From an uncultured Candidatus Saccharibacteria bacterium (lineage in GTDB: Bacteria; Patescibacteriota; Minisyncoccia; 2-02-FULL-40-12; GWA2-44-9): DNA of 64,000 nucleotides. A program made the position numbers and the translations under genes. The stretch's first letter is position 1; each line of letters starts with the position of its first letter. This document shows positions 256 to 44,715 of this stretch, in pieces. The stretch spans positions 345,893 through 409,892 of the forward strand of contig CAZBFM010000001.1 of NCBI GenBank assembly GCA_964491455.1. The letters run 5' to 3'. The notes beneath the pieces were generated by a model that saw nothing but the letters and a program-made list of their open reading frames with translations, did not search any database and had not been told where the DNA came from.

Positions 256-1386
256 TTATTTCATTAACATATCAAATGCCTGACACACGTCCTCTACACT
301 AATGCGCTCCACTTGACGTCGCGCTTCATCGTAATTGTATATGCGAGCATTCATGATATGCACGGCAGGTTTCGTGCGCTCTTTCCACTTCACCACCAGA
401 TGTCCTATGCCTTGCGGCGGTTGCTCGCGCTCATCAACCGGTCCAACGATATCAATCGTCTTCACGCCAAATGCTTCGGCAATATAGATAGGCCCAGTAT
501 CCACCGAAATAAATATATGCATCCGAGCGATGAGCGCCTTCAACGCATCAAGAGAAAGCGCATGGGATGCATCAATTATTGGAGTGTCTCCCGAGATCGC
601 TCCCTTGAATGCAATCACCTCCTCCGCATCGGCTGGCCCGCCAATAAGCATGATTCGCGCCTTATAGTGCGTGTAGATATAATCAGCAACCCGCGCAAAT
701 CGGTCAGCGCCCCAATTTTTAATTTTGTTTCCGCTCGACACTGAAATGCCGACAACGGTATCAGCCTCTTGAATGCCATGCACGTTGAACAATTGCTGAA
801 TCTCTCCCTTCGCTGCTAAAGAAAAACCGAGATGTTTTCGCGTGTCGTTTGTTGTAATTCCCAATGGCTCGAGGAGGCGCAAGTACTCGCCGGGCGCATA
901 TGATCCCATGCGATGCGGTCGCGTGATCGTTACGGCACGCAACAATCCATACATCCAAGTGCTGTTCGGACTAAAGCCGTTTTCGATACGCGGTGCAATA
1001 ATCGCCTTAGCACCGCCCAGAAAAGCAATCGCAAGCGCGGTAAAGCTCGGAGCAACGGAGATGGCAACATCTATGGACAGTGGCGCAACGCGCGCTAGCA
1101 CCTCCTCAAACTCAGTGAATGCAATATATTCGTCGACATCCTGATTATCATTCAGTAGCTCACGATATTGCGGTTGGCCGACCACACACAATCGCGACTC
1201 AGGATACGAGGACTTAATCGCTCGAAATACAGGAGTCGTGCACACCATATCGCCAAGCTGCGCCAGCTGAAATACAAGCACAACTCTTGGGGACTTCGGT
1301 GGCATCTTCGCGGTGCCGTGAATCATCGCGTAAGCAATGCTTCGAAGTAATATACCAAGATACGATATTTTCTTATGCATGATCAT
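256..1386 (-). CDS. Family-9 glycosyltransferase (heptosyltransferase-like)
   Basis: Family-9 signatures (IGISVSSGNKIKNWGADRFARVADYI ... GGPADAEEV). The ORF track starts at 1425, but the ATG at 1386 or 1380 just after the upstream TAA (1373-1375) is the likelier start. Confidence 0.65.
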   Translation of the reverse strand: MIMHKKISYLGILLRSIAYAMIHGTAKMPPKSPRVVLVFQLAQLGDMVCTTPVFRAIKSSYPESRLCVVGQPQYRELLNDNQDVDEYIAFTEFEEVLARVAPLSIDVAISVAPSFTALAIAFLGGAKAIIAPRIENGFSPNSTWMYGLLRAVTITRPHRMGSYAPGEYLRLLEPLGITTNDTRKHLGFSLAAKGEIQQLFNVHGIQEADTVVGISVSSGNKIKNWGADRFARVADYIYTHYKARIMLIGGPADAEEVIAFKGAISGDTPIIDASHALSLDALKALIARMHIFISVDTGPIYIAEAFGVKTIDIVGPVDEREQPPQGIGHLVVKWKERTKPAVHIMNARIYNYDEARRQVERISVEDVCQAFDMLMK

Positions 1387-2032
1387 GCTTACTTGCAACA
1401 AGGAAAAAGGCGCTTGCAAAGGCATCTTTTTCTATCGTTGACCTCTTAATATCTCCATAGATAACATGAAATATTCTGGGCGCCCTTTGTAATATTTTCG
1501 CAAATGAAAACAATAAAAATTTGCTGACGCTATTACTTCGCATGCGACTCTGGTATCCAGCTCTCTGCGCAAGAATTGCAAATGAAGTTTGCGCGTCTGC
1601 CTCTGCTTCTAATTTTTCTATCACCCATCCCCCGTGAAACAGCTCCTGAAGTCCGTACTTGGTAAATCTCCAAAAATCTCCTGGAGCATCGTGTATGGGG
1701 AACAAAAAAGGAACGGAAATAATAATACGACCACCCCGTTTCAAGCATCTCCGCATCTCAGAAATAGCTCGAACGGGTTCTTTCAGGTGCTCAAGTACGG
1801 ACATACAAAGCACAACATCAAATTCTTCATCTTGAAATGGAAGCTCGTACACGCTAGCCACAACATCCACTCCTGGGCCGGACTTGATATCGATTCCCGT
1901 TCGGTTTGGAAAATACGATCCATACCCCGGCCTTCCGTATGATCCGATCTCCAATACGCGCCCGTCCGAAGCATACGGAGCAACAAGTGCATCAAGCCTT
2001 TTTCTGCTTATTTTGTCGGTGAGAACGCTCAT
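1373..2032 (-). CDS. Class I SAM-dependent methyltransferase (type 11)
   Basis: VLEIGSYGRPG motif I and VVLCMSVLEHLKEP post-I motif. Confidence 0.7.
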   Translation of the reverse strand: MSVLTDKISRKRLDALVAPYASDGRVLEIGSYGRPGYGSYFPNRTGIDIKSGPGVDVVASVYELPFQDEEFDVVLCMSVLEHLKEPVRAISEMRRCLKRGGRIIISVPFLFPIHDAPGDFWRFTKYGLQELFHGGWVIEKLEAEADAQTSFAILAQRAGYQSRMRSNSVSKFLLFSFAKILQRAPRIFHVIYGDIKRSTIEKDAFASAFFLVASKHDHA

Positions 2033-2101
2033 TTTTTCTAGACTTTACGATACCATGCTCGTGGCAAAACAAAAAGAAGGCGCCCCTGATGGGGCGCCAC
2101 G

Positions 2102-3508
2102 CTAGTACGGAATACCAGCGTCGTGCACTTCTTGGCAAAAATCGAGCCAGAACGACTGGATCTGCTCTCGACTCAATGCCGATGTTGACGTAACCACGCT
2201 CAGCTTGTCACGAGAACCAGCGTAAAAGTAGTCACCATCAAGGAGAGCGGTGTCAATCTCCATCTTTATGTCGTAGTCGTGCACAGCATCTTGACCATAC
2301 TCAGCTGCACGCTGAGCGTCAGTGCCCTTTGAAATTGGCGTACCCGGAAATGGAATATACGTGCAAATATTCACGCGATCAGGCCTATTTTCAAGCACCC
2401 ATTTGCGCGTTGCAATCATGCTCGCCATATCCTCACCCGGCAGCCCAAGGATAACTGATGCCTTAAACCGAATACCAATCTCGCGACACCATTGACGCAC
2501 GAGTGTATTCTGCTCGACGCTCGTACCCTTATGAATGGTATCGAGGATGCGCTGATCTCCAGACTCAACACCTACCAGCACCTCGCGCAAGCCATGATCG
2601 TACATCATCTGCATAAACGACTTGCCGTACTTGGGATGCGTCATGATGTCGACGCGTATGAAGCACCTCCAGTAAAAACCGAAGGACTTGAGTTGCTTGC
2701 AGATTTCAATCATTCGCGGGCGAGCGAGCGGCAAGATGTCGTCGAAGAAATGAATTGCAGAGAATCCGAGATCTCGAATCTGCTGGAATTCCATCACAAC
2801 TCTTGGAATGGGGATGTAGCGGACAGCACGACCCCACAACGCCGGACTGTCGCAGAAGGCACAGCGCTCAGGACAGCCACGAGATGAAAACATCGTTGTG
2901 CCTGGATGCTTATTACCGCGCTCATCGTCGAGTACGTAATGATATTTGTGCGCTTCGGATCGATCGGGAATCGGAATCGCCCCTAAATCGGCAATGTTCG
3001 GTTCTTGTATGACCAATCCGCGCCCGTGGCGTGCCATGTAGTCATGCGCCTCATCAAGTCGAGCCAATGCCTGGAAGACGGCCTGCTCGCCCTCTCGCTT
3101 GACCGCGATGTGATAAGAGCTCAAGAGTTGCTGGTCTATTGGCTCTGTCTCACCAATAATCGGTATGCCAGGACCTGACGTAACCGGCCCAGCATAGTTC
3201 GTGACGTTTGGCCCACCTACGATGGTCGTGCATCCACGCTCTCGAAGATACGCTCCGAGTCGACGTATTTCACGCGCTTGAGGGGAGGTCCCAGAAACGA
3301 GATACGCGTCGTACCCACTCGAAGGTGGCACCTCACGCTTTGCTACACGGGCACCCGTGGCGTCAATCCGATACTCCGACATGTCCACGTAGTCAACTTC
3401 GTGACCCTGACCCTGTAAAGCTGCCTTTAGATAGAACAACCCCAGCGGAGGAAAGACCATGGGATCTTCGAAAATGGTCGTCTTAGGGAAAATGAGACAG
3501 ATCTTCAT
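2102..3508 (-). CDS. B12-binding domain radical SAM enzyme
   Basis: N-terminal B12-binding-like domain (MKICLIFPKT...) and a CPERCAFC (CxxxCxxC) radical SAM cluster motif. Confidence 0.75.
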   Translation of the reverse strand: MKICLIFPKTTIFEDPMVFPPLGLFYLKAALQGQGHEVDYVDMSEYRIDATGARVAKREVPPSSGYDAYLVSGTSPQAREIRRLGAYLRERGCTTIVGGPNVTNYAGPVTSGPGIPIIGETEPIDQQLLSSYHIAVKREGEQAVFQALARLDEAHDYMARHGRGLVIQEPNIADLGAIPIPDRSEAHKYHYVLDDERGNKHPGTTMFSSRGCPERCAFCDSPALWGRAVRYIPIPRVVMEFQQIRDLGFSAIHFFDDILPLARPRMIEICKQLKSFGFYWRCFIRVDIMTHPKYGKSFMQMMYDHGLREVLVGVESGDQRILDTIHKGTSVEQNTLVRQWCREIGIRFKASVILGLPGEDMASMIATRKWVLENRPDRVNICTYIPFPGTPISKGTDAQRAAEYGQDAVHDYDIKMEIDTALLDGDYFYAGSRDKLSVVTSTSALSREQIQSFWLDFCQEVHDAGIPY

Positions 3509-3588
3509 CTCAACCTACTTTCTTCAATAGTGATTGTGGTGTTGTAAAATAGCTGGCAATTTATACCACAAATAGAAGTTCGAGACAA

Positions 3589-4719
3589 TCAACACCTCGC
3601 TATAAAATCACAGATATGAAGCGCTCGATTTTTCCACGTATAACGCCTCACTGACTCTTTAGCTTTTGATGCGCGCAGATCATCCTCCGAAAGTGCGCGC
3701 CGAATGCCACCGGCCATCGAAAGCGCATCATCGGGAATCACAAACACAGCCGCGTCGTCGGGAAGAATTTCACGGATGGAAGGCAAATCGGATGCGACTA
3801 TGGGTGTACCCGAAGCCATGTATTCGAATAACTTCAGCGGAGATGTATAGCGACTTGAAATCTTTTCCTTCTGCGAATTTGGAAGCGCCACAACATCACC
3901 CGCTCGCAGGTATGTCGCAACATCGTGATGAGGTACAAATCCTCGAAACACAATATTTTTTTGCTCACTATAGTTCGCTTTGTATGCTTGTATGTCTTCA
4001 GGAGTCCCCCCGACGAGAACGAATAGCACATCCTCTAATCTCGCTGCAGCGCCCAGAAGCGTCTCGACACCTTTCCATCCATACAAATGCCCCGCGTATA
4101 CAACAATCTTACTATCCTGCGGCAAATCAAGCGCTGTTCGCGCAGTAGAGCGGCTTGGAACCCCCTGGAACATACCAAGATCAACCCCATCCGGGGCGAC
4201 GCCAATGCGTCCCGGATATACTTCCGCAACATCGTCACGCAAACCATTCGATATAGCGATAACCCCGCCAATAGCATGTAGCACCTTCCGATATAGGTAC
4301 GAATGAATGTTGCTCGGCATTGAATGCATCTCCCAATACATCGGCATTCCCAGCGACCGAAGCGCGAAAAGCGCGAAAGGATCGCGAGAGTATATGACAC
4401 CACCCTTCCCCGAAAGATACCTTCGCACAGCATAGCCAAAGAATAGCTGTTGCAGCCAAAAAAATATCTTTGCGAGAGGAGCATATCTGGTAACCGTAAT
4501 AAAATCCGCCGCAGGAAGTCGTGTTACTTTGAACGGATATTGGATTCCGTAATATTTCATTGGATCTCGTTCGGTGATTGACGGATAAGTTCGACGATCT
4601 GGAATAATCAACTCACACTCCACACCACAAGAAGCAAATGCTTCGCACATCTTCATAATTTGAAGTCCATGCGCCTTTGGAGTTGGCAACTGATTATTGG
4701 CAACGTAATAGAGTTTCAT
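3589..4719 (-). CDS. Family-4 glycosyltransferase
   Basis: C-terminal EX7E-type motif (LFEYMASGTPIVASD). Confidence 0.75.
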   Translation of the reverse strand: MKLYYVANNQLPTPKAHGLQIMKMCEAFASCGVECELIIPDRRTYPSITERDPMKYYGIQYPFKVTRLPAADFITVTRYAPLAKIFFWLQQLFFGYAVRRYLSGKGGVIYSRDPFALFALRSLGMPMYWEMHSMPSNIHSYLYRKVLHAIGGVIAISNGLRDDVAEVYPGRIGVAPDGVDLGMFQGVPSRSTARTALDLPQDSKIVVYAGHLYGWKGVETLLGAAARLEDVLFVLVGGTPEDIQAYKANYSEQKNIVFRGFVPHHDVATYLRAGDVVALPNSQKEKISSRYTSPLKLFEYMASGTPIVASDLPSIREILPDDAAVFVIPDDALSMAGGIRRALSEDDLRASKAKESVRRYTWKNRALHICDFIARC

Positions 4720-5729
4720 GCGTTCAGTCCTGTTATTCGGAGCACCTCAGACATTCTGTCGAGATACGTATGCGACGCTCGGGTGCGTTCAAACCCGGCA
4801 CGAGCGATCCGCATACGCTCCTCGTCATGAACCAGATAGTATGCGGCTTTTTCTCGTATATCGTGCTGATCATGAAATGGGACGAATTCCTCCCCCTCAC
4901 TGAAGAGCTTATAAATCTCCTTCTTATCATCTCGGTTTAGTAAGAATCCGCCCGCACCGGTGATTTCAAATGGGCGCACGTTTACGCCAGTACCAAGCAC
5001 ATCGGATACATGCATGCTAATGACCACCTTGCTGCGCGCGTAAATGCTCGCCATCTCCAGAGCAGAAGGGTACCCGTGATAGACATCCCGCAAACTCGTA
5101 TCTTTCCAGGCTTTATTTCCCCATATATGCAGCCCCAAGTCTTTTACCCGAGCTAGAATATGCTCGCGATCCGCATATCGAACGCGATCATACGAACCAA
5201 TAAATGAGATGGGGTACTCGAAGTCAGCGCTGGGAAATACTGCATCCTTCGAAATATCGGCGCAGAATGGAAGATAGTTGGCGCAACGATATCCAGCATC
5301 AGAGAGCGCAGAAACAACGAGAGGATCAAAGTTAAAAAAATGGGTGTAGTGCGGTGCAATGCGAAGTATCCGCTGAAGATGGTCCATCGTTTCTGGATAC
5401 CAATTCACAACAACCGAATTCCGACGAAGTTCGTCGAGCATATCGAGCCCCAGAGCCTTCCCTTTAGAGACGAATATGAGATCCGGTTGAAATCGACGAG
5501 CAACATTGAGAATGTGATGATCCACCTTCCGTAGCTCCCTCTGGCGAAGAGGTTCGCGGATAACGGCAGGAAGCTTATCGAATATGCGCTGCGGCATTGT
5601 ATTCGTCATCAGCAACGTTGTCCCCAAATAATCAGCGAACTGAACCTCCCACCCGAGCTGCTGGAATGCTCGCGTGATCGGTTCAGTAAAAATTGAATAT
5701 CGCTGGCTAATGAGAAGTACTTTTTTCAT
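4716..5729 (-). CDS. CgeB-like / DUF3880-type glycosyltransferase
   Basis: GT-B-like C-terminus (ITGAGGFLLNRDD ... FVPF), no classic family-4 motif. Overlaps neighbours by 4 nt. Confidence 0.45.
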   Translation of the reverse strand: MKKVLLISQRYSIFTEPITRAFQQLGWEVQFADYLGTTLLMTNTMPQRIFDKLPAVIREPLRQRELRKVDHHILNVARRFQPDLIFVSKGKALGLDMLDELRRNSVVVNWYPETMDHLQRILRIAPHYTHFFNFDPLVVSALSDAGYRCANYLPFCADISKDAVFPSADFEYPISFIGSYDRVRYADREHILARVKDLGLHIWGNKAWKDTSLRDVYHGYPSALEMASIYARSKVVISMHVSDVLGTGVNVRPFEITGAGGFLLNRDDKKEIYKLFSEGEEFVPFHDQHDIREKAAYYLVHDEERMRIARAGFERTRASHTYLDRMSEVLRITGLNA

Positions 5730-6579
5730 GTGATGGCTCCCCTAGTACTGCAATGCGAATTCTGAATTTTACCGCCCCATACAGAAGAAGCCACTTATAC
5801 TGAACACGTCGAAATTCGTATGCAGGTGGAAGCGACTCAGAGAAACCGTGACGGGCGTACATCCAGATGATGCGAACTATTGTCCAGACCAAACCACCAA
5901 CATTTCTATATACAATCCAGTACAAGAAGTCTTTGAGTGGAATTTTCACCGCTTCACGAATCTGAATTTGAATGTGTCCACGATTTAGATTTGGCTCATA
6001 CGGTGGAATACCCCCCTGTGGTTCAACAATCACAAACCAGGGATTCTTCATGGTTCCTACGGGAAACTTCTGGGTATCAAATGCGAGCCGCGAGTGAGGC
6101 GTCCGCTCGTGTCGAATCCCGGATGCTCGATTCATGAGACGCATCTGGTACCCAGGATACGCAGTCGAATACTTCATTTCACGTCCATTGAAATTGATAT
6201 GCCCAGGAAGCCGCCAAATATAATGCGTAATAGGATCCGTTGTGACGATTGTTCGAATCTCCTCAGCAGTACGCGAAGGAAGCTCTTCATCGGTATCAAG
6301 ATAAAAGTTCCAATCGTAGCGCCCCTCCTCAATAGCTTTATTTCTGAGAGCGGCGACATCTTTGAATCGATAATTCGGCTGATCGGTATCAGCCTGCTTA
6401 ACAATGTGACTCGTGTATTCACGAGCAATGGCGAGCGTGTCGTCGGTACTATTGCCATCGAGAATGAGGATATCGTCAAAGTCCTTCAAGCTCTCCAAGC
6501 ACCGACGCAGCACACGACCCGAATTCAACGTGAACACTTGCACCGTACATGGTATCTTTTTATTACCCTCGGAAGACAT
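5707..6579 (-). CDS. Family-2 glycosyltransferase
   Basis: VQVFTLNSGRVLRRCLESLKDFDDILILDGNSTDDT GT-A motifs. The internal ATG at 6579 (MSSEGNKK) is the likelier start because the ORF otherwise overlaps the upstream gene by 155 nt. Confidence 0.7.
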   Translation of the reverse strand: MSSEGNKKIPCTVQVFTLNSGRVLRRCLESLKDFDDILILDGNSTDDTLAIAREYTSHIVKQADTDQPNYRFKDVAALRNKAIEEGRYDWNFYLDTDEELPSRTAEEIRTIVTTDPITHYIWRLPGHINFNGREMKYSTAYPGYQMRLMNRASGIRHERTPHSRLAFDTQKFPVGTMKNPWFVIVEPQGGIPPYEPNLNRGHIQIQIREAVKIPLKDFLYWIVYRNVGGLVWTIVRIIWMYARHGFSESLPPAYEFRRVQYKWLLLYGAVKFRIRIAVLGEPSHEKSTSH

Positions 6580-7759
6580 CGTGAAATAATGAAAACATCT
6601 TCTTACCAATGACCTCGTTGCTAAAGTGGGATGCAATATACTCTCGACCATTCTTGCCGAGCTGCCGCGCCAGCTCAGGATTCCGCAACAATGCAGCCAT
6701 CGCTTCATAGAGAGCATCTTCGTCGTTCGGAGGCACCATGATTCCCGTTTTCTGATCGATCAACACCTCGTCGATTGATCCCGAGTGCGTTGAAATCACT
6801 GGGACTTCGCACAGAGATGCTTCTGCAATCGAATATCCGAACTGCTCCTCCCAGCCATCGAGCGGAATACTTGGATACAAAAACACATCAGCCGCATTAT
6901 ACAGCGCTGGGAGTTTATCATTTTCAGTAATCCAGGGCACAAATATAACCTCGGCTTGCAGCTGCAATTGCTGCACGAGTGCCCGCAACTCTGATTCATA
7001 CTCTCCACTTCCAACGATTAATAATTTTATAGCGAATAGTTGCTTTATTCGCGCCAGCGCACGCAATGCTATATGAATTCCTTTGCGCTTTCCGAGGGCG
7101 CCCACGAAAAGAAATACCTTGCTCCCCTCCAAATTGTATTGCCTGGAGATATCTGCGTGTGGTATATCAGGGCGGAAGCGGCGGGTATCAAATCCCGCGT
7201 GTAAAAATGCACCTGAAGTGATACTAGTTCCGAATGACTGGAGAATGCGCTCGGCCTTGTGCATACCACAAATGGCACCGTCCGAGAGAGCGAGTGTTGC
7301 TCGTATAATGAGTTGCTTCATTCGATGCTTCACGCCGCTGTCTTTTTCAGCATAGGGAATGTTCTCCCAATAGTGAAATACGTGCTTCATGCCGAACAAC
7401 TTTGCCCAACATGCGTTATAGAGTGTCGATAGCAGGTTTGGCTCTCCTGCGGTAAATAAAATATCCGCTCCCTTCGTGAATCGGATCCACGCGAGACGAA
7501 CAACAAAAAATGGCATCCATCCCTTTAAGAGCCCCCCTATAACTGGGTATTGGGAATGAGTAAAATATGCTGGCGAGTGATAGATTTGAAACCCCTTTCT
7601 CGTGAACGGCTTGAACACAACCCTTCCGTTTTTTGCCGTCCAGTTACTTGGCAAGATAAAGAACAGGCGCTCCCGCTCCGGATACGATTCGAAAACATCA
7701 AATAAATTCTGTCGGGTATAGGTATAACCTGTAACAACGATGTTCATATTCGTTCGCAC
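6563..7759 (-). CDS. Family-4 glycosyltransferase
   Basis: EEQFGYSIAEASLCEVPVISTHSGSIDEV. Confidence 0.75.
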   Translation of the reverse strand: MRTNMNIVVTGYTYTRQNLFDVFESYPERERLFFILPSNWTAKNGRVVFKPFTRKGFQIYHSPAYFTHSQYPVIGGLLKGWMPFFVVRLAWIRFTKGADILFTAGEPNLLSTLYNACWAKLFGMKHVFHYWENIPYAEKDSGVKHRMKQLIIRATLALSDGAICGMHKAERILQSFGTSITSGAFLHAGFDTRRFRPDIPHADISRQYNLEGSKVFLFVGALGKRKGIHIALRALARIKQLFAIKLLIVGSGEYESELRALVQQLQLQAEVIFVPWITENDKLPALYNAADVFLYPSIPLDGWEEQFGYSIAEASLCEVPVISTHSGSIDEVLIDQKTGIMVPPNDEDALYEAMAALLRNPELARQLGKNGREYIASHFSNEVIGKKMFSLFHDVFRG

Positions 7760-8589
7760 AGCACGTTGATCGATGAGAATTGAAGAATATCAGATTCTTT
7801 CAAAACCTCACACTTTCGATCGATGTTTTTTAGGGTATAGCCGATTCCTACGAGACGATGCATCAATGCCGCGCCAGAGGAACCAAACACTTGCTGCGCT
7901 TCATCATATATCTCGATGGTCATGCGTGGAGTACCCCGAAGTACACGTTCAGCGCCATCAATAAATAGACCTTCGGCGCCATCGATGTCACATTTAATGA
8001 AATCAACGGAAGTAATGTGATGCTTATCTACGAATTCATCGAGCAATATCATGGGCACAAGCTCTTTCGATGATGCTTGCACGAGTTCTGACGATAAATT
8101 GGCCGTACCGGCACCTGCGTCGTCGTAATACGGAACCTGCGCACGCACATTGCCCACTGCAGCTCGAGTGCACATCACATTCTCCAGCTTATTTAGGTGA
8201 AGACTCTTCTGCAGTACGCCAATAAGCTTGTCGTCCATGTCGAACGCATATACTCGTCCCCGAGGACCGACGAGATGAGCCATAAGGATCGTGTACCAAC
8301 CAAAATTTGAGCCAACATCCATGACGGTCATGCCAGGTTTTATCATCACGTGGAATAACGCGGTCATCTCCGGTTCGTAGACACCGCAGAAGAAGAGACT
8401 CCTATTGAGCGCATGAATAGTATCGATCCAAAAATAGAAACCCTGAACACGAATCGCTCCCTCGTAGCGATGTCCCAGTATCGCGAGACTGGCGTTGATG
8501 AGCATCGTCTTCCCACGAGGAACTGTACGGATTACAAATCGCATCAGGTCAAACGCGGCTCGACGCGTTGTCATCGCTAAATCATACAT
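7744..8589 (-). CDS. FkbM-family methyltransferase
   Basis: VMDVGSNFGWYTILMA motif. An ATG at 8589 lies 1 nt after the upstream stop. Confidence 0.65.
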   Translation of the reverse strand: MYDLAMTTRRAAFDLMRFVIRTVPRGKTMLINASLAILGHRYEGAIRVQGFYFWIDTIHALNRSLFFCGVYEPEMTALFHVMIKPGMTVMDVGSNFGWYTILMAHLVGPRGRVYAFDMDDKLIGVLQKSLHLNKLENVMCTRAAVGNVRAQVPYYDDAGAGTANLSSELVQASSKELVPMILLDEFVDKHHITSVDFIKCDIDGAEGLFIDGAERVLRGTPRMTIEIYDEAQQVFGSSGAALMHRLVGIGYTLKNIDRKCEVLKESDILQFSSINVLCERI

Positions 8590-8590
8590 A

Positions 8591-9238
8591 TCACATGGAC
8601 TTCTCTGCTTCGATAATGAAGTGCGTTGCAAACAAGCTTGGCCAGAATCTCAGTAAGGCTGTTAATGTACCAGGGAAGTAATAATGATTTTCACGCACAA
8701 CCGAGAACCCACTCTCGCGCAAAACCTCTCGCAGATAGCGATAATCAAACCAGCGGATATGCCCAAAATCAAAATCGCCTTGCTCTGTATATGCAAATCT
8801 TCCAAACAGGAATGTGAGTCGATTGCGCCACGAAAAGAAATTCGGCGTCGTCACAATCATGCGACCGCCCGGACGCAACGTGGTAGCAACACTCTTGAGG
8901 AACGCAACTGGATCAAACACATGCTCAATCACAGCGGCAACAATAGCAAGATCAAATGACTGACTCGCCAGATGTTCAGGCCACTCCGCTTGTATATCAA
9001 GTTCATATGCATCGTCGAGCACCTGCTTTGCATGCTCAACTGCAGCATGCGAAACATCGACACCCACAACATAATTGCCCCTCTCTCGTACGAGCTTCCC
9101 CAGATATCCTCGCGAACATGCGACATCAATCACCCGTAAATTCGGCCCGCCCACAAGCTTCATAATGTTACGACGGCGAGTAGTGCTGATGCCGTACGTG
9201 ACACTCTTTTCTTCATATGCACGTTGTGTCTGATTCAT
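8591..9238 (-). CDS. Class I SAM-dependent methyltransferase
   Basis: VIDVACSRGYLG motif I and LAIVAAVIEHV. Confidence 0.7.
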   Translation of the reverse strand: MNQTQRAYEEKSVTYGISTTRRRNIMKLVGGPNLRVIDVACSRGYLGKLVRERGNYVVGVDVSHAAVEHAKQVLDDAYELDIQAEWPEHLASQSFDLAIVAAVIEHVFDPVAFLKSVATTLRPGGRMIVTTPNFFSWRNRLTFLFGRFAYTEQGDFDFGHIRWFDYRYLREVLRESGFSVVRENHYYFPGTLTALLRFWPSLFATHFIIEAEKSM

Positions 9239-9246
9239 AAGGAGCG

Positions 9247-9732
9247 TTAGTTAAACGTTTTCATGAATGCACGAATCTTTTTCCAGGCAGCATCAGTTTC
9301 AATTTCATCCTCGTGAATATCCAGTTGTTCTGGCTTTTTCGGATTCCATGCAGGATAGCGATACACCAAGACATACGCGGGAGTTTTTCCCACATTTTCT
9401 ATAGCGTGTGGATATCCCCTCGGAAGAAAGACCGTTTTGAAGTCACCATCCCCCATGAGCACCTCTTCTTTTTCTGTTTTACTCCTATAAATAATCTCTT
9501 TCACAGAACCCTTGATACATGTGACGAAATAATCAGACTGCGCATGGAGATGATACCCCTTTACAACGCCGGGTTTCGCAACCGTGAGATACACCTGCCC
9601 TTTGATGTGCTTCGTGAACGCATCCTTGTCACTGAATAGCTCGAGGAGCCAGCCATTGGCCCTTCCCGAACGACCCTTGGTTTCAACGCGCTTACACGGT
9701 CGCGTCGTTACGATGTGGTTGACTTTTTTCAT
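9247..9732 (-). CDS. WxcM/FdtA-like cupin (dTDP-sugar 3,4-ketoisomerase-like)
   Basis: Small cupin with GWLLELF ... KGYHLHAQSDYFV ... RGYPHAIEN motifs. Confidence 0.5.
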   Translation of the reverse strand: MKKVNHIVTTRPCKRVETKGRSGRANGWLLELFSDKDAFTKHIKGQVYLTVAKPGVVKGYHLHAQSDYFVTCIKGSVKEIIYRSKTEKEEVLMGDGDFKTVFLPRGYPHAIENVGKTPAYVLVYRYPAWNPKKPEQLDIHEDEIETDAAWKKIRAFMKTFN

Positions 9733-10817
9733 AGCGATAGTAATTGTTTGTCGCGCAACTCCTGCAGGAGGTGGCCCATCAGCTGCTTAGGATTGTACAG
9801 CTCGAGGAATTCCTGACGTGCTTGCGCTCCGAGTCGAATACGAAGCGCTTCGTCTTTCTTCACAAGCATAATCTTGTCGGCTAAATCTCTTCCATCAGCT
9901 GCATTGCAGAGTACCATGTTTACACCATCATTCGAAATCCTCTCGAGCGCATCCGAGCGACCCGTAATGATTGCCTTACCACATGCCATGTATTCATAGA
10001 CTTTATTGGGCGCACATCGATGGAACTTTCCTGTGCCCCCAAATGTGCCAAGACACACATCCGCTGCATTGATGTACCGTGGTAAGTCCTCGTAGGATAT
10101 GCGATCAATCCAGGTAATATTCGTAAGTCCAAACTCTCGAGCAGAGGATCTACACGAATCATACAACTGACCCTTGCCAATAATTTGAAATCGAATCGCA
10201 GGATCATCCTTGAGCAAATTGGCGGCATCTATGATATAGGATGGCCCCTGAAGCGGAATAAAGTTTCCATGAAAATGAACCAGAAAACCCGTATGCCCAT
10301 CGGGCGGCAGCGGCCTCAAAACCGTACCATCGGTTCCGATAAATACCGCGATAACATTCTCAATCGGCATGTGCATTTCTGTTGCTAAGAATCTGCGAGC
10401 AGCATGACTATCGACGATAGAAGCATCGGCAAGTTTCATCGCCGTGCGATCAATCCACTTGTACCATACAGCGTGCAGGCTCTCTGGCGTATACTTTTGC
10501 CGATCGAGAATATATCCCTCGTAGTGTGATGTCAGCATATCAATCACAATCGGGGTGCGGTGCACGAGACGGTGATATGTCAGAAGTAGTCGCACCAGAA
10601 ACATCGACTCTTGTGCAGGAAATGCCACTATAACAAGATCAAATCGCTCGCCAGCGACCGACCAGTATCTCGCAATCAGTCGAATAAATTTCATGAGTCC
10701 GCCCGTGACCCCTCCGTTGCACTGCACCACTTCGGCTCCATTCTCAATGAGGCCCTTCACAATCACTCGATTGCGACCGTACCCGGGATCATAATTTCCA
10801 ATGTAGAGTACTCTCAT
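9729..10817 (-). CDS. Family-4 glycosyltransferase
   Basis: GT-B C-terminal motif (VYEYMACGKAIITGRSD). Confidence 0.7.
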   Translation of the reverse strand: MRVLYIGNYDPGYGRNRVIVKGLIENGAEVVQCNGGVTGGLMKFIRLIARYWSVAGERFDLVIVAFPAQESMFLVRLLLTYHRLVHRTPIVIDMLTSHYEGYILDRQKYTPESLHAVWYKWIDRTAMKLADASIVDSHAARRFLATEMHMPIENVIAVFIGTDGTVLRPLPPDGHTGFLVHFHGNFIPLQGPSYIIDAANLLKDDPAIRFQIIGKGQLYDSCRSSAREFGLTNITWIDRISYEDLPRYINAADVCLGTFGGTGKFHRCAPNKVYEYMACGKAIITGRSDALERISNDGVNMVLCNAADGRDLADKIMLVKKDEALRIRLGAQARQEFLELYNPKQLMGHLLQELRDKQLLSL

Positions 10818-11461
10818 TTTTTTGCTGTAAAAATATAACCAAGCGCATACGTGCCACTAAACACCGGCTTCACCTTGAGGAGAAGTACGTCGAGGGAAAA
10901 AACCATCAACGCTACGATCCATCGCAGCATCTTCGGGGCGATAAACTCAATCTGCGACCACGCGGCAGTAAGCGGACCGCGACCAATAAAATCAACCTTC
11001 ACCCCATGAAATCCCGTGTCTTCCAAGAGTCGCCGAAGGCCCTGCTGCGTATATCGAAAGTAATCATACGGATCTGCGTGATACTTCACCAAAAAGGGAA
11101 CGTATCCTAAGAATACTCCCCCCGGACGCACTATACGAAACGATTCTCGCAACAGTTGTTGGTGATGATAAATGTGCTCCAAGAGGTTAACGCACAAAAT
11201 GACATCGTAGCTTGAGGATTCGATTGGTAATTCGTGCTCGAGATTAGCAATAATATCCGGGCGTCGATCGTGCGAGATATCTACCGATGTAATGCGGCTG
11301 CCTGTGCCAACATGCAGGTAGCTCAAATACGACGATCGCACACTCCCTGACCCAAGATCAAGAATCTCCCCATCAATAGTGAAATCGGACAATCGCTGAT
11401 TCATCAATATGCGATTGATCGTTTTGCCGCGGAGTGATTGTCGAATTGTATCCAGTACCAT
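10814..11461 (-). CDS. Class I SAM-dependent methyltransferase (type 11)
   Basis: ILDLGSGS motif and VILCVNLLEHI. The ATG at 11461 avoids a 34-nt overlap with the deacetylase. Confidence 0.7.
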   Translation of the reverse strand: MVLDTIRQSLRGKTINRILMNQRLSDFTIDGEILDLGSGSVRSSYLSYLHVGTGSRITSVDISHDRRPDIIANLEHELPIESSSYDVILCVNLLEHIYHHQQLLRESFRIVRPGGVFLGYVPFLVKYHADPYDYFRYTQQGLRRLLEDTGFHGVKVDFIGRGPLTAAWSQIEFIAPKMLRWIVALMVFSLDVLLLKVKPVFSGTYALGYIFTAKK

Positions 11462-11469
11462 ATGAGCCT

Positions 11470-12297
11470 CTATGACGTGCCGTGCACAATACGAGCATAC
11501 CACTCGCCCACTCCAATTGCATGCGCGTACAACTCAACGTCACTTGTGTGCTTGGTGATGCCAATGCGGCGAAGTTGCAGTGCATCGTCGTGGGGGCGAA
11601 CAAGTCCATGTCGAATCGTGAATGCCATCGTATATCCAGCACGCCGTACAGCCTCAATCACGCGGTGATTATATTTACCCCCCGGATACGCAAAAGAGAT
11701 AGGACGAACACCAAGCTCACGCTCACAGATCAGCGTTGATTGCGCGATGTCTTCCGCGAGCTCATCCTCCTGGAGCGTGCGAAGCACTGGATGGGAGTGT
11801 GAATGGCTCCCAATATCGACAGCACGTTGGACACCTCGAACGTCCTCCCATGTCATCAATTCGAGATTTGTACCAAGCTCAGCTCCACTTCGAGTCGTGT
11901 GCAAGAATATCACCGGACGAATTCCTCGCTCCTGTAACACGGGGAAGGCGTGCGTGATGCAATTTCGGTAGCCATCATCAAACGTTAGAAGCACACTACG
12001 CGGAGGCAATGGTAGCGACCCCGTGTGCACGCGCGCAAACTCGTCCAAGCTCAGGAACTGAAAACCCCACTTACTCAGCAGCTCAATCTGACGGGCGAAC
12101 GTCTGTTGCGACACCGAGAACTCCCATGGCGTATCTCCCACCGCGTGGTACATAAGGACTGCCACACCTGGACGCGCAAGATCTAGTCCTCGGGCCAGCG
12201 CATGCACTGGCAATAGGAGGCTCATAACGAGACGCTTGATCGTGCGCTGGAAGCTACTCATCGATGTACGTAATATAGCATTTTCATGAGTTTTCAC
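11470..12297 (-). CDS. Polysaccharide deacetylase (NodB homology, CE4)
   Basis: LTFDDGYRNCITHAFPVLQERGIRPVIFL and the histidine-rich catalytic region. Confidence 0.7.
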   Translation of the reverse strand: MKTHENAILRTSMSSFQRTIKRLVMSLLLPVHALARGLDLARPGVAVLMYHAVGDTPWEFSVSQQTFARQIELLSKWGFQFLSLDEFARVHTGSLPLPPRSVLLTFDDGYRNCITHAFPVLQERGIRPVIFLHTTRSGAELGTNLELMTWEDVRGVQRAVDIGSHSHSHPVLRTLQEDELAEDIAQSTLICERELGVRPISFAYPGGKYNHRVIEAVRRAGYTMAFTIRHGLVRPHDDALQLRRIGITKHTSDVELYAHAIGVGEWYARIVHGTS

Positions 12298-12301
12298 GAT
12301 A

Positions 12302-12988
12302 TTGACTACTATCAGGCAATTTGTTATAATATTAGACGGGTCTCAATCACGAGGCTTCAGAGTCCAAGGAGGGCTCATGACCGAGATAGCACCTAAAAAA
12401 TCAATACGTAAACACCGAAACCGCAATGCGCACATCGATGGACTGATGCGGTTGGCGAATCAGGCAAAGAACCAATCCGAATACGGGATTGCAAGGCAAA
12501 TTTTTGCGTTCCTCGTATATCGTTATTTCCGTGTGTTTGCCAATCACGGACTAATTTTGCTGGAATCATCGCGACCGCAAGCGATGTACATTCCGAGCAA
12601 GCTCAAAGAGTGGGTGCGAAGTGCCTATCCCGAAAGCAGCTGTACGAGATCTCCATATCTCGACTTCACGGAATACTCATCATTTCCGAAAGAAGTAAAG
12701 GAAGTCTGGGGACTTGTGTGTCGCTCCGGGGGAGCAAACCTCGTGACACTCCTCTCTCCCTGTAGCGACGAACGATTGTGCATCCCGACGCCGCGCCTCA
12801 AAGGTAACGCACGAGGGATTCTCTACGTCGTAGCTCAACAGGTGCCACGTCACACGAGCACTCGCGTAACGACTCCCGCCACACCTGAAACACAAGCATT
12901 ATTCCGCGACGCACTGAGGCGACGCACTTCCGAAAAGGACATGGCACGGGCCGTACGCCACATCCTCAAGCCGAAAGAAAAGAAGTAA
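12302..12988 (+). CDS. Hypothetical protein; the only plus-strand ORF inside the island; coding status uncertain
   Basis: A 228-aa ORF with no recognisable motifs. It fills an 800-nt gap between two minus-strand genes. Confidence 0.25.
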   Translation: MTTIRQFVIILDGSQSRGFRVQGGLMTEIAPKKSIRKHRNRNAHIDGLMRLANQAKNQSEYGIARQIFAFLVYRYFRVFANHGLILLESSRPQAMYIPSKLKEWVRSAYPESSCTRSPYLDFTEYSSFPKEVKEVWGLVCRSGGANLVTLLSPCSDERLCIPTPRLKGNARGILYVVAQQVPRHTSTRVTTPATPETQALFRDALRRRTSEKDMARAVRHILKPKEKK

Positions 12989-13048
12989 AAAAGACGTTCG
13001 TTTGTAAGCGCACAAGATTACGCCGTGCAATGGTATAGCGCAATCTTA

Positions 13049-13108
13049 TAAATACGATCCCCGCATTGATATGCATTCACAATAATGATGAATACGTACG
13101 CGGGGATT
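13049..13108. terminator. Long-loop hairpin (ATCCCCGC ... GCGGGGAT) directly downstream of the family-4 glycosyltransferase stop at 13116
   Basis: 8-bp GC-rich arms followed by a T-rich stretch on either strand. Confidence 0.3.
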
Positions 13109-13115
13109 TATGTTT

Positions 13116-14138
13116 CTATCGTGTCATATTCCTCGCAAGCGTGGCGATAAGTGAGTCGAGATTGTGATGCGAGACTACGTACTCACGAAGTCCTGGAGAT
13201 GTAGCACTCGCACGAGCGCGCAGAAGCGCATCTTTCAGACTAGCTGCATTATCGGCGTCAAACAGAAGTTCAGGTGGGAGAAACGCCCTTGCTGCATCAT
13301 TACAGCTAACCACATTCATACCACATGCCATCGCTTCGAGAATTGTCTTATCGAGACTTCCCGTTTTGCTCAAATGAACAAAGACTGCGTGCGATTGATA
13401 CACGGAAATGAGGCTTGCATGAGCAAACGTCCCGAGGAAATGAAATTGCGCCTCGCAACCCAGCGATCGAATCCTCGCAAGCAAATCATTCTTATACGTC
13501 AAATCTCCCGGGAGTACGGCACCGCCGATCACATCGATCGAAATCGTAGTCCCAGCCTGCCGAAGGGCGCCGACAGCATCAACAAGCACTTCAAGATTTT
13601 TTACTGGCGCGATCCTCCCTACCACGAGGAATGAACTTTCTTCTCGCGGTTGGTTTTTTGGAAAAAACACATTGGTATCAATTCCATGCCCAGTAACGAG
13701 AACCTTTCGCGATGTGAGCCTGAAGCTCTCCCGAGATGCGGTAAAAATACCATGCACGAATAGTGCCGCTACTCGCAATCGCACGGTAACCGCCTTGTGG
13801 GTATACCATAGGAATACGCGCTTCTGTAATAACCGCAGCCATGGGGCACCCACCGCCGCCCAGATGGGATTCATATGCACAAAAACAACGTCATACTCAG
13901 CTCGATGCGTCCATAGCAGTCGATAGAAACGCAGCAACTGGACCGCCTTGCTCGCCCCGCGCTGCTTGCCAAGATCGAGAATCGTCACGTTCATCGGCAA
14001 CTCATACGCACCGACGCTTTGGCATATCACAGTCACGCGCTCAAATCGCTCTGAAAACCGCTTCATCCACGCCATAAAGAAACCCAATAATTGATCGTTG
14101 GCGTCAACTCGCTGAGTGATAATAAGAAGCCTCTTCAT
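13116..14138 (-). CDS. Family-4 glycosyltransferase
   Basis: TILEAMACGMNVVSCND. Confidence 0.7.
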   Translation of the reverse strand: MKRLLIITQRVDANDQLLGFFMAWMKRFSERFERVTVICQSVGAYELPMNVTILDLGKQRGASKAVQLLRFYRLLWTHRAEYDVVFVHMNPIWAAVGAPWLRLLQKRVFLWYTHKAVTVRLRVAALFVHGIFTASRESFRLTSRKVLVTGHGIDTNVFFPKNQPREESSFLVVGRIAPVKNLEVLVDAVGALRQAGTTISIDVIGGAVLPGDLTYKNDLLARIRSLGCEAQFHFLGTFAHASLISVYQSHAVFVHLSKTGSLDKTILEAMACGMNVVSCNDAARAFLPPELLFDADNAASLKDALLRARASATSPGLREYVVSHHNLDSLIATLARNMTR

Positions 14139-15220
14139 TGTGTAAAACTCTTCAGGCTCGCGACGAGATTAGTAATCACAGCGGAACGTTCAAAGGCTCG
14201 TGCGGTCGCGACACCTTGCTCGCTCAAACGTCGGTAGAGCGTCGCGTCGTCAAGGATATTGCGCACCTTGTCAGCCAAGTCGGAAGCATTCCATTCCTCA
14301 ATGCACTCCGGTGGTAGCACGTCTTCCACAATGCCAACTGGCGTAGCCACTACAGGCGTGCCGCAAGCTAACGACTCCACTACGATACGCGGGCCACCCT
14401 CATTGAATGAAGGCATAAGAAGCACTCGCGATTCATTGAGATACCGAGCCACCTCAGTGCTATCAACGGCAAATCCAGGGAAGTGAATCTTTAACCCACG
14501 TCGTTTTGCACGGCGACGCGCCCACGAAAGCAACGGCCCATCACCCACAGCGACGCCCACGCATCCTAATCTTTCAATCACTTCTAGATATAAATTGATT
14601 CCTTTATTGGATGCCATGCGCCCCACAAAAGCAACATCGTAAAGCTTGGATGTATCGCGAAGAGCAAATACGTTGGTGTCGATGTACACCGCAGGAATCG
14701 TACTAATTTTCTGCAGTGGAACTCCCGCATGCTGCAGAAACGCAGGAACTTGTCGTTGATTCATAACCCGCACAGCACGCGCAGACGATGCGTCCCAAGA
14801 CACAACAAGCTTCGTTAGCCATCGATACATACGTTCCTTGAGTCCCGATGCTCGTGGTACACCCGGTATATGGAAAAGCTCCAACACATACGGCACCCCT
14901 GTTGCAGCGTGAAGCAGCCGAGCCCCTATTCCATTATAGAAGGGTGGGTACTCATGCACCGTCATGAGCTCATGCGTGAATCTACGTATCAATGCTCGCC
15001 CCTTCCACCAAATCCAAAAGGGCTGACAAAGAAGCGGCAACGGCGATGGGTGGACGTGTACGTTGCCAAATACAACCATGTTGTAACGTTGCATCGATAC
15101 ACGCGGACAGATAATATCGATGCGCTCAAAATGCGAATGAAGCTCCTCCAGCGTATTATAGAATGCACCCTTTTTACCGAATGCGAGCGCACGGTCTCCG
15201 CTAATCATCAGTAGCTTCAT
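14135..15220 (-). CDS. Family-4 glycosyltransferase
   Basis: IVVESLACGTPVVATPVGIVED. Confidence 0.7.
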   Translation of the reverse strand: MKLLMISGDRALAFGKKGAFYNTLEELHSHFERIDIICPRVSMQRYNMVVFGNVHVHPSPLPLLCQPFWIWWKGRALIRRFTHELMTVHEYPPFYNGIGARLLHAATGVPYVLELFHIPGVPRASGLKERMYRWLTKLVVSWDASSARAVRVMNQRQVPAFLQHAGVPLQKISTIPAVYIDTNVFALRDTSKLYDVAFVGRMASNKGINLYLEVIERLGCVGVAVGDGPLLSWARRRAKRRGLKIHFPGFAVDSTEVARYLNESRVLLMPSFNEGGPRIVVESLACGTPVVATPVGIVEDVLPPECIEEWNASDLADKVRNILDDATLYRRLSEQGVATARAFERSAVITNLVASLKSFTQ

Positions 15221-16383
15221 AATGAAAGATCGTCGAGTAATTGCTTCGTTTGTTGGTACATCTTCTCTATATTGAAGGCTTCAACCGTTTGTCGTCCTTG
15301 TGCAATGAATTGCTCTCGAAGATCGCTTTGCTTTGAGAGCGCCTTAATAGCCTCCACAAGATTGAATTCATCATTGTATCGGACCATCAAGCCATTTTCC
15401 CCTTGCGTTATGACTTCCGGATTACCTCCAGATGTCGTTGTAATAACGGGGGCGCCAACTTGCATTGCCTCGAGCACCTGATGCGAAAATCCTTCGTATC
15501 CCGTGTTGAGAACAAACATATCCGCTGCAGCAAGATAGATTGCCAGTTCCCGCGATGATTTACGACCCGCAAGCGTCACCTTTCGCTCCAAGCCAAGGTT
15601 TCGAATAACAGACTGCAGCATATCAAAATCCGGCCCATCACCCACGATAATAAGCCGAAAGAATTGATTCACCTGCAGTAACTGCGGCATGATTTTTATG
15701 AGCATGCGAAACCCCTTCCACGGAACAAGGCGACCCGCTGAAATAATGATGGTACCCGATATACCAATGCTGCGTCGCGCATCTTCCTTGGTGCCTTCAA
15801 ATCGCGGCAGATCAACACCGTTATAGATCACGTGAATATGCTTTGCCGGAGCACCCCATGAACGCACGATACCCGCAAGATATTCAGAGGGAACGATAAC
15901 GGCATGGGCTCGACACACCATAGATTTTTGAGCCTCATGGAGTCGCCGAATCCTCCCCTGCTTCGGCGATTTTTGAAACTCATTAATCATGAGATATGTT
16001 GCTGCGGTCTGCACGGCAATCTCCCATGCATAGTCCCCGGCAATGCGAACAACGTATGGCTTCCCAAAGAGCTTCGCTGCACGAGCCGCAGGAACACCGG
16101 CGGACACGGCATTCAGGGCGAGAACTACATCACATCGTCGCACCACCATACTACAGCGCAGAAAATACATGAAATGTCGAAGTCCCCACGGCCACCCTGA
16201 CCAAATACGATGAACGCGATACTTCAAGTGCTCATCGCCCGTGAATCTCCTTACACTCGAATATGCAATCACCTCTACCTGAACACCCTCGTTTGATAAT
16301 CGCGACGCAAGTGACGCAGCGTACGAAGCGGGACCTCCGATATCAGGAGCGAATATTCCTGTTGCGATACAGAGTGATTTCAT
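15217..16383 (-). CDS. Family-4 glycosyltransferase
   Basis: VLEAMQVGAPVITTTSGGNPEVI. The ATG at 16383 forms an ATGA overlap with the upstream stop. Confidence 0.75.
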   Translation of the reverse strand: MKSLCIATGIFAPDIGGPASYAASLASRLSNEGVQVEVIAYSSVRRFTGDEHLKYRVHRIWSGWPWGLRHFMYFLRCSMVVRRCDVVLALNAVSAGVPAARAAKLFGKPYVVRIAGDYAWEIAVQTAATYLMINEFQKSPKQGRIRRLHEAQKSMVCRAHAVIVPSEYLAGIVRSWGAPAKHIHVIYNGVDLPRFEGTKEDARRSIGISGTIIISAGRLVPWKGFRMLIKIMPQLLQVNQFFRLIIVGDGPDFDMLQSVIRNLGLERKVTLAGRKSSRELAIYLAAADMFVLNTGYEGFSHQVLEAMQVGAPVITTTSGGNPEVITQGENGLMVRYNDEFNLVEAIKALSKQSDLREQFIAQGRQTVEAFNIEKMYQQTKQLLDDLSL

Positions 16384-17501: not shown

Positions 17502-17544
17502 TTGGAATGTTGTGGTATTCTAACATCACTGAGCGTACTCCGCT

Positions 17545-44666: not shown

Positions 44667-44685
44667 AATCGCTAGTGTATAAAAA

Positions 44686-44709
44686 AAGCGAGACCCTTGC
44701 GAGTCTCGC
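44686..44709 (-). terminator. Intrinsic terminator (GCGAGACTCGCAAGGGTCTCGC + T7 on the minus strand) after the MBL-fold gene
   Basis: Read directly. Confidence 0.45.
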
Positions 44710-44715
44710 ATGCTG

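Follow-up and report, generated by a model that had tools for sequence, protein, structure and literature searches.

What reaction is catalyzed by a B12-type radical S-adenosylmethionine (SAM) enzyme whose gene lies within a glycosyltransferase cluster? The question is raised by a 64,000-nucleotide stretch of DNA (the window) from an uncultured Candidatus Saccharibacteria bacterium (assembly GCA_964491455.1, contig CAZBFM010000001.1, positions 345,893 to 409,892), where such a gene occupies positions 2102..3508 of the minus strand. An original prediction made without database searches proposed a cobalamin-binding radical SAM enzyme that could C-methylate or epimerize sugars of a glycan. We find that the gene belongs to an uncharacterized subfamily with the standard architecture of its superfamily, and that its product probably tailors a glycan sugar. 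Cobalamin-dependent C-methylation via methylcobalamin would be the single most likely reaction, with a probability of roughly 0.4. Judged from sequence and modelled structure, the annotation appears sound, while the reaction is proposed rather than settled.

The gene and its product

The ends of the open reading frame (ORF), 2102..3508 on the minus strand, coincide exactly with those of the gene as originally predicted. The gene and the parts of its product are as follows:

2102..3508, minus strand: gene for the B12-type radical SAM enzyme, 468 amino acids (aa), ATG start, stop codon at 2102-2104 (ORF list)
2993..3508, minus strand: N-terminal Rossmann-like domain of the B12-binding type, aa 1-172 (PF02310 match; beta-alpha pattern in both models)
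2327..2911, minus strand: radical SAM partial TIM-barrel core, aa 200-394 (PF04055)
2105..2326, minus strand: C-terminal region, aa 395-468, a low-confidence segment followed by a terminal helix

A word-indexed search returned 402 homologues, the best of which is 99% identical to the window protein. Because homologues are of equal length (466-469 aa) and share the N-terminus MKICLIFP, the gene is intact. The AlphaFold model of the window protein (predicted local distance difference test, pLDDT, 88.4; predicted template modelling score, pTM, 0.88) has three parts: a beta-alpha Rossmann-like N-terminal domain (N-domain), a radical SAM barrel and a C-terminal region. Residues 390-430 are poorly predicted (pLDDT 44-68), yet the C-terminal region carries the invariant residues D413, G431 and T442, and we infer that it forms a substrate lid.

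A canonical radical SAM core

Evidence for membership of the radical SAM superfamily came from motif, profile and fold. The cluster-binding motif lies at the following position:

2852..2875, minus strand: CPERCAFC, the canonical CX3CX2C motif for the [4Fe-4S] cluster and SAM, with C212, C216 and C219 (translation checked)

All three cysteines are invariant in the 43 sequences of the family alignment, as are the family-specific core residues W340-C341, K349 and S351. The Pfam model PF04055 (Radical_SAM) matches residues 208-370 with 53.6 bits against a cut-off of 29.5, bearing out the CxxxCxxC motif named in the original prediction. A Foldseek search of the PDB placed AprD4 (6FD2) first, with an E value of 4e-24 and a template modelling (TM) score of 0.68-0.70, followed by QCMT/MgmA, TsrM, CysS, MiaB, TokK and OxsB. 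The protein thus combines the CX3CX2C motif, a PF04055 score above the cut-off and a fold that matches radical SAM structures, and is predicted to have a canonical [4Fe-4S] site that cleaves SAM.

The N-terminal domain and cobalamin

The original prediction also named a cobalamin-binding domain. The Pfam model for that domain, PF02310, matches residues 18-108 of the window protein with 31.2 bits (E 2.2e-7), marginally under its gathering score of 32.1 and hence strictly sub-threshold. The domain type is nevertheless backed by N-domain alignments, and a precomputed PF02310 match is present in 109 of the 120 listed homologues. The NCBIfam models PhpK, BchE and TIGR04295 align with the window protein from residues 18-22 onward; the AprD4 model aligns only from residue 169.

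Comparison with solved structures, among them the cobalamin-bound QCMT, CysS and TokK, gave the same division. Alignments to the full family profile begin at profile position 58 for QCMT, 51 for CysS, 74 for TokK and 18 for TsrM, while AprD4 is aligned only over positions 143-368. When the profile was shortened to residues 1-262, it aligned QCMT (E 7e-11), CysS, TokK and 4Q37 through strand 3 to strand 5 of the N-domain, with GGP(H) and GEGE motifs common to these four and the family; AprD4 was matched at its cluster loop only (positions 169-226). With the N-domain profile alone, 4Q37 was the only significant match among PDB sequences, and TsrM, TokK and AprD4 gave none. A Foldseek search of the PDB with the N-domain model returned generic flavodoxin and Rossmann matches, with TokK in 18th place and AprD4 outside the top 50, and does not discriminate. 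In none of the model and profile alignments was the AprD4 N-domain aligned with that of the family.

The conserved elements of the N-domain map to the following positions:

3437..3463, minus strand: PMVFPPLGL loop after strand 1, aa 16-24, at the classical DxHxxG position, without the His (translation checked)
3278..3292, minus strand: GTSPQ loop after strand 3, aa 73-77, probably under the lower face of the corrin (translation checked)
3086..3217, minus strand: GGP (aa 98-100) to EGE (aa 139-141), hallmark motifs of class B enzymes (translation checked)

In the 43 sequences, L22, G23 and L24 of the strand-1 loop are invariant, and P16, M17, V18, P20 and P21 are at least 90% conserved. T74 and Q77 of the strand-3 loop are likewise invariant (S75 and P76 at least 90% conserved), as are G98 and G99 after strand 4 and E139 of the EGE motif. 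Between GGP and EGE lies a variable insert (aa ~105-125) with low pLDDT. We take the three invariant loops to be placed like the classical cobalamin motifs DxHxxG, SxL and GG.

The His of the DxHxxG motif is absent from the window protein. A lack of B12-binding residues on alignment had been put forward as evidence against the original prediction, but base-off binding of cobalamin in class B radical SAM enzymes involves neither this His nor any other protein ligand (PMC12931638), so its absence does not discriminate. CysS W75 aligns directly to P76 of the family and TokK W76 does so by ungapped extrapolation; given that TokK W76 is the lower-axial residue (PMC12931638), the GTSPQ loop is likely to be the lower-face loop. 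On sequence grounds, the N-domain appears to be of the class B cobalamin type and is clearly unlike that of AprD4. The term cobalamin-binding, as applied to the window protein, is to be read as an assignment of domain type rather than as proof of a bound cofactor, and on balance we lean toward the view that the domain binds cobalamin.

A conserved association with glycosyltransferases

Pfam scans bore out the placement of the gene among glycosyltransferases and methyltransferases. The genes around it form a glycan island, which possibly continues beyond the left end of the window:

256..18717: glycan island of same-strand genes, ~18 kb (Pfam scans)
256-1425: GT9 glycosyltransferase (Pfam)
1373..2032, minus strand: Methyltransf_11 class I methyltransferase adjoining the radical SAM gene (Pfam)
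3589-4719: GT4 glycosyltransferase (Pfam)
4716-5729: Glyco_trans_1_2 glycosyltransferase (Pfam)
5707-6717: GT2 glycosyltransferase (Pfam)
6563-7759: GT4 glycosyltransferase (Pfam)
further genes, up to 18717: FkbM methyltransferase, further methyltransferases, cupin, deacetylase and five more GT4 glycosyltransferases (Pfam)

The island holds 11 glycosyltransferases (GT9, GT2, Glyco_trans_1_2 and eight GT4), together with four methyltransferases, a polysaccharide deacetylase and a WxcM/FdtA-like cupin. The same scans detected no short-chain dehydrogenase/reductase (SDR) partner gene in it.

Stronger evidence for a link to glycans came from a survey of 30 non-redundant loci (15 bacterial and 15 viral; numbered with an L), in which the four genes on each side of the family gene were clustered. 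GT2 glycosyltransferases and class I methyltransferases, which were merged by blastp clustering, were separated by seeded hidden Markov model (HMM) searches. Within these four genes, the survey found:

any glycosyltransferase or methyltransferase: 27 of 30 loci
GT4-type glycosyltransferase: 20 of 30 loci, 12 of them viral
GT2 glycosyltransferase: 18 of 30 loci, 13 bacterial and 5 viral
SDR epimerase, dehydratase or reductase: 8 of 30 loci, directly downstream (+1) in L001, L010, L014 and L016

Relatives of the methyltransferase at 1373-2032 lie within the same distance in nine of the 30 loci, five of them viral, according to an iterative HMM search. Nucleotide-sugar genes flank the family gene in L001, L003 and L010, and the bacterial loci also carry genes for NTP-transferase, NeuB, DegT aminotransferases, CMP-transferases and a Wzx-type flippase. 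No tetrapyrrole, RiPP-precursor (ribosomally synthesized and post-translationally modified peptide) or lipid genes were found in any locus examined. The association with glycosyltransferases persists across the Candidate Phyla Radiation (CPR), Binatia, a metagenome-assembled genome (MAG) of a gammaproteobacterium and phages, despite otherwise different gene order. The case for a sugar or glycoconjugate substrate rests chiefly on this linkage, which has outlasted both the reshuffling of neighbourhoods and movement of the gene between cells and phages.

The gene is followed by a likely transcription terminator:

2069..2098, minus strand: terminator-like hairpin with T-run, 8 G-C pairs, GGCGCCCC-ATCA-GGGGCGCC, beginning 4 nt past the stop codon

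Across the two closest genomes (L011 and L012), the hairpin has a conserved stem and a variable loop, and an analogous hairpin is present in L001. Given its position after the stop codon, the radical SAM gene is probably the last in a transcription unit that starts in the upstream glycosyltransferase genes, and the downstream methyltransferase and GT9 genes would probably form a separate unit.

One locus holds a second protein of related type. In L003 (GCA_900218045.1), a 654-aa B12-binding/radical SAM protein is encoded at 12817-14781 (minus strand in the locus), two genes from the family member and in the same glycan cluster.

Limits and distribution of the family

At E <= 1e-30, an exhaustive search found 228 cluster representatives; with the limit relaxed to E <= 1e-10, the background comprised 12,487. 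When the family profile, built from 43 members, was run on every ORF of the retrieved loci, no member scored below 460 bits and no other protein above 249 bits. The family is therefore sharply delimited. Its CPR members come from Patescibacteria, Yanofskybacteria, Parcubacteria, Paceibacterota and Saccharibacteria, and its other members from Binatia/'Deltaproteobacteria' MAGs, the gammaproteobacterial MAG and ~18 IMG/VR viral contigs. The closest reference genomes are Patescibacteria (CPR) MAGs, with orthologues 91% and 88% identical. The family has no cultured host, and isolated phages and sequenced plasmids contain no true member, all matches there being at most 27% identical.

No curated family model claims the window protein, since all the best NCBIfam matches fall 5-6 fold under their cut-offs:

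HpnJ (TIGR03471): 113.4 bits, E 1e-32, cut-off 577.6, aa 200-394 only
PhpK (TIGR04479): 107.1 bits, cut-off 600, aa 22-398
AprD4 (NF033070): 99.2 bits, cut-off 500, aa 169-423 only
BchE (TIGR02026): 69.2 bits, cut-off 481

We therefore rejected identity with each of these families. For HpnJ, the low score is joined by the lack of hopanoid genes in the window and the loci; for PhpK, by a context without phosphonate genes; for AprD4, by an unaligned N-domain and a different cluster motif. The automatic names BchE and YgiQ were rejected because of the BchE score and a context without tetrapyrrole genes, and the 'BchE' labels that JGI attaches to homologues are generic names at the level of clusters of orthologous groups (COG). 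No named family is thus matched; assignment to a well-characterized radical SAM family acting outside glycans would have told against the predicted role. A literature search on radical SAM enzymes with glycosyltransferases, polysaccharides, Patescibacteria or phage capsid glycosylation yielded no paper on the family. PHROGs offered no described family for the enzyme, giving a weak match to a family of unknown function only, and the viral structures in BFVD included only distant class-B-like phage radical SAM proteins (13-14% identity).

Some relatives are unusually long. An interpretation of these proteins as glycosyltransferase fusions was rejected, as they are intein-containing or tandem-duplicated versions. 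In several close relatives from the exhaustive search (P0124, P0125, P0204 and P0167), whose C-terminal halves are 36-46% identical, the B12-type N-domain is separated from the radical SAM core by an intein (Hint/Intein_splicing, with a homing endonuclease of the LAGLIDADG or HNH/NUMOD3 type). The intein lies in the cluster-binding loop or close to it. A free-standing LAGLIDADG-like gene lies right upstream of the radical SAM gene in phage locus L027 (7567-8004).

Phage members

In phages, the radical SAM gene is part of a compact module with a putative glycosyltransferase, two GT4 glycosyltransferases and a small methyltransferase-like protein. The module is found in L007/L008 (2437-9263), L026 (4191-9275), L024, L031, L035 and L036. 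Its neighbours in L007/L008 are an SU10-type major capsid protein and another protein, longer than 3800 aa. This arrangement suggests that the phage module modifies a virion glycan or a host-surface glycan.

A neighbour-joining tree groups the phage members with two CPR members, L021 and L022, and a short (~420 aa) form of the enzyme is common to phage contigs and to these two CPR MAG contigs (Saccharibacteria and Paceibacterota). The grouping suggests gene exchange between phages and CPR bacteria, a prophage, or phage contigs mis-binned into MAGs. It is doubtful, although conceivable, that CPR bacteria and the phages with the short form share a dedicated radical enzyme that installs a non-canonical sugar, whether C-methyl-branched, deoxygenated or carbocyclic, into surface or virion glycans.

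Proposed reaction and alternatives

If the window protein is a cobalamin-dependent C-methyltransferase, the [4Fe-4S] cluster on C212, C216 and C219 would bind SAM and cleave it reductively to a 5'-deoxyadenosyl radical, a step proposed because the motif is invariant and canonical and the fold agrees. The radical would then take a hydrogen from an unactivated sugar carbon, as suggested by the conserved gene neighbourhood; the sugar could be a nucleotide sugar or a residue set by the neighbouring glycosyltransferases. The N-terminal Rossmann domain would hold cobalamin base-off, as expected of class B enzymes about 11 A from the cluster, with the GTSPQ loop below the corrin, and the methyl group of methylcobalamin would pass to the substrate radical, giving a C-methyl-branched sugar. 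A second SAM would re-methylate the resulting cob(I)alamin. Methyl transfer is the least certain of these steps, and is proposed because the N-domain appears to be of the class B type and most characterized cobalamin-binding members are C-methyltransferases. The target would be the assembly of a surface glycan or, in phages, of a host-surface or virion glycan. Of the original prediction, the class B architecture and the glycan link are supported; C-methylation or epimerization is only one possibility, and the protein matches no named family.

Several observations weigh against cobalamin-dependent methylation. The core is most like those of non-methylases, namely AprD4 (101 bits; TM 0.68-0.70) and HpnJ, the top NCBIfam match, and the PF02310 score falls just short. 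The family has Pro-Gln where TokK and CysS have a bulky hydrophobic lower-axial residue, and the island already holds four conventional methyltransferases. The 64-kb window showed no gene for cobalamin uptake or synthesis. A search of the window and eight bacterial loci for cobalamin riboswitches found none either, although the lack of a riboswitch is weak evidence. CPR bacteria and phages are not expected to make B12. Finally, AprD4 binds no cobalamin despite its Rossmann-related N-domain and its place in the class B similarity network (PMC12931638); a PF02310-like match or fold is therefore no proof of B12 binding.

The alternative that survives best, although we consider it unlikely, is cobalamin-independent chemistry like that of AprD4, in which the N-domain is a scaffold and the radical drives the dehydration of a sugar 1,2-diol. 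An NAD(P)H-dependent reductase would turn the resulting ketone into a deoxysugar, and another radical rearrangement without the cofactor would also fit. No solved structure matches better than AprD4, either in sequence (E 1.4e-22; 7e-28 with the profile) or in fold, and the substrate of AprD4 is an aminosugar. The SDR gene at +1 in four bacterial loci, and within four genes in eight of the 30, resembles the AprD4/AprD3 pair. Moreover, CPR bacteria and phages would need no B12 for such a reaction, which fits the missing B12 genes and riboswitches. The similarity to AprD4 is, however, confined to the radical SAM core; it is the N-domains of true cobalamin enzymes that align with the family, and never that of AprD4. 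The cluster motifs differ (CX3CX3C in AprD4 versus CX3CX2C), and 99 bits compare with a cut-off of 500. Invariant loops at what we take to be the three classical corrin-contact positions are hard to square with a mere scaffold. As for the reductase, the window island has no SDR partner, and SDR genes are common in any glycan cluster.

A cobalamin-dependent reaction other than methylation is quite improbable. Here the enzyme would rearrange a sugar in the manner of OxsB or HpnJ, by ring contraction, carbocycle formation or epimerization, and cobalamin would serve in some way other than as methyl donor. HpnJ is the top NCBIfam match (113 bits), and OxsB is among the structural and profile matches. 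HpnJ has a proposed role in the sugar ring contraction that yields hopanoid cyclitol ethers. The window island and L003 each include a polysaccharide deacetylase, recalling the trio of HpnI glycosyltransferase, HpnK deacetylase and HpnJ, although this is only a lead. The HpnJ score is nonetheless 5-fold under its cut-off, covers only core residues 200-394 and comes without a hopanoid context. The lower-face loop also has an invariant polar Gln, and polar lower faces have been linked to non-methylating enzymes (TsrM R69, OxsB N186; PMC12931638), whereas a hydrophobic residue below the corrin (TokK W76, Mmp10 L322) would be expected of a C-methyltransferase of the GenK/GenD1/TokK type. Interpretation of this polarity is confounded by QCMT, a radical methylase with a polar SLQST in the aligned loop; Gln77 therefore does not discriminate methylases from non-methylases, and the argument is weak. 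In addition, only a small fraction of the characterized cobalamin radical SAM enzymes are non-methylating (PMC12931638).

Highly improbable is a protein, peptide, lipid or tetrapyrrole substrate with glycosyltransferases nearby by accident. In its favour, several sources label homologues BchE or YgiQ (at JGI, 'anaerobic Mg-protoporphyrin IX monomethyl ester cyclase'), peptides or proteins are the substrates of many class B enzymes (QCMT, Mmp10, PoyC; PMC12931638) and the phage neighbours include several proteins of unknown function. Against it, BchE scores 69 bits compared with 481, the examined loci lack tetrapyrrole, RiPP-precursor and lipid genes, and chance can hardly account for a glycosyltransferase linkage that spans CPR, Binatia, a gammaproteobacterial MAG and phages.

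The remainder of the window

The rest of the window encodes housekeeping proteins: HisRS, UvrB, RuvA, QueA, DinB, a LexA-like protease, peroxiredoxin, peptidyl-prolyl isomerases (PPIases) and exonuclease VII. An Rfam scan of the 64 kb found no family that reaches its gathering score and no tRNA, riboswitch or other RNA. The GC skew stays negative along the entire window, and almost every gene lies on the minus strand. The enzyme had been called unusual in a reduced genome; the lack of a cobalamin gene or riboswitch in the window agrees with this, but the family recurs in several CPR lineages, so the gene is no peculiarity of this one genome. The accompanying remark about glycosylases without Fe-S clusters was accurate, as the two HhH-GPD glycosylases (43860-44711 and 49799-50431, both minus strand) have two Cys each and lack the four-Cys Fe-S cluster loop typical of EndoIII/MutY.

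QueA, an enzyme of queuosine synthesis, is encoded at 48765-49802 (minus strand), with neither QueG nor QueH in the window. The step after QueA uses the cobalamin-dependent QueG or the B12-independent QueH, and the choice bears on B12 use. At 58268-60049 (minus strand), a ferric-reductase-like transmembrane protein with flavin adenine dinucleotide (FAD) and NAD domains (NOX-like, 438 aa) is preceded by a cytochrome b5-domain protein (151 aa), a redox pair unexpected for a CPR genome. A 1065-aa ORF without a Pfam match (18876-22073, minus strand) is the immediate neighbour of the glycan island, and after it comes a Lamin-tail-domain protein at 22707-23651. Other large ORFs without a Pfam match lie at 60410-63993 (minus strand; 440 and 764 aa) and 51751-53457 (minus strand; 568 aa). 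These large ORFs are possible surface proteins or glycan acceptors.

Implications

Class B radical SAM enzymes carry out hard chemistry on unactivated carbons, and most of their sequences are without a known function. What is new here is the consistent link between a radical SAM gene and glycosyltransferase clusters in CPR bacteria and phages, which specialists may find useful rather than startling. The tie to glycosyltransferases in very different genomes gives an unusually clear functional handle, and the phage modules are compact enough for expression as a unit. Once identified, the reaction would count as a new sugar modification in bacterial and phage glycans, and it would inform on the cell envelopes of CPR bacteria (Patescibacteria) and their possible reliance on scavenged vitamin B12. 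If CPR bacteria and phages do share the enzyme, it would represent previously undescribed radical editing of glycans in the interplay between phages and host surfaces. A true dependence of the enzyme on cobalamin would mean that CPR cells, with their reduced genomes, and phage-infected cells rely on scavenged B12 for building their envelopes.

Comparison with known systems

Among solved structures, AprD4 (6FD2; NF033070), the radical SAM 1,2-diol dehydratase of apramycin biosynthesis, is the best match in sequence and fold. It resembles the window protein in having a Rossmann-like N-domain, a radical SAM core and a C-terminal region within about 450-470 aa, and the two cores have the motifs GR.(V/I)R, R.D, G(V)ESG and GLP.E in common. 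AprD4 differs in its low identity (21%) and in its CX3CX3C motif, where the family has CX3CX2C. It acts on a free aminoglycoside within an antibiotic cluster, whereas the window gene lies in a glycosyltransferase island, and it is a cobalamin-independent sugar 1,2-diol dehydratase (PMC12931638).

The top NCBIfam match, HpnJ (TIGR03471), is a hopanoid-associated radical SAM protein of the B12 type that matches over the core only. The proposed substrate of HpnJ is a deacetylated hexosamine installed by a glycosyltransferase. The window island likewise has glycosyltransferases and a deacetylase, but hopanoid genes are present in no locus. OxsB (PDB 5UL2-4), a cobalamin-dependent ring-contraction enzyme, gives a profile match over the radical SAM core (E 1.4e-8) as well as a fold match, and its substrate is the ribose of a nucleotide, a sugar like the substrate proposed here. 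OxsB differs in its length (744 aa), its extra N-terminal and helix-bundle domains and its small-molecule antibiotic context, and the core alone aligns. Although it uses cobalamin, OxsB does not methylate, and its lower face is polar (PMC12931638).

The class B methyltransferases QCMT/MgmA (9CCB), CysS (9N1B), TokK (7KDX) and TsrM (6WTE) have, like the window protein, an N-terminal Rossmann domain followed by a CX3CX2C core. The solved enzymes are 14-19% identical to the window protein, with TM scores of 0.5-0.62. TokK, TsrM and CysS carry long C-terminal domains (575-681 aa in total), which the 468-aa window protein lacks, and at the lower-axial position the family has Pro-Gln in place of Trp or Leu. 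The substrates of the solved class B enzymes are peptides, proteins and small molecules. The likeness extends to the N-domain, where these methyltransferases align with the family profile and have the S-x-x loop, GGP and GEGE in common with it, as well as the missing His of DxHxxG. Most characterized cobalamin-binding class B enzymes are C-methyltransferases, and GenK and GenD1 act on carbohydrates (PMC12931638).

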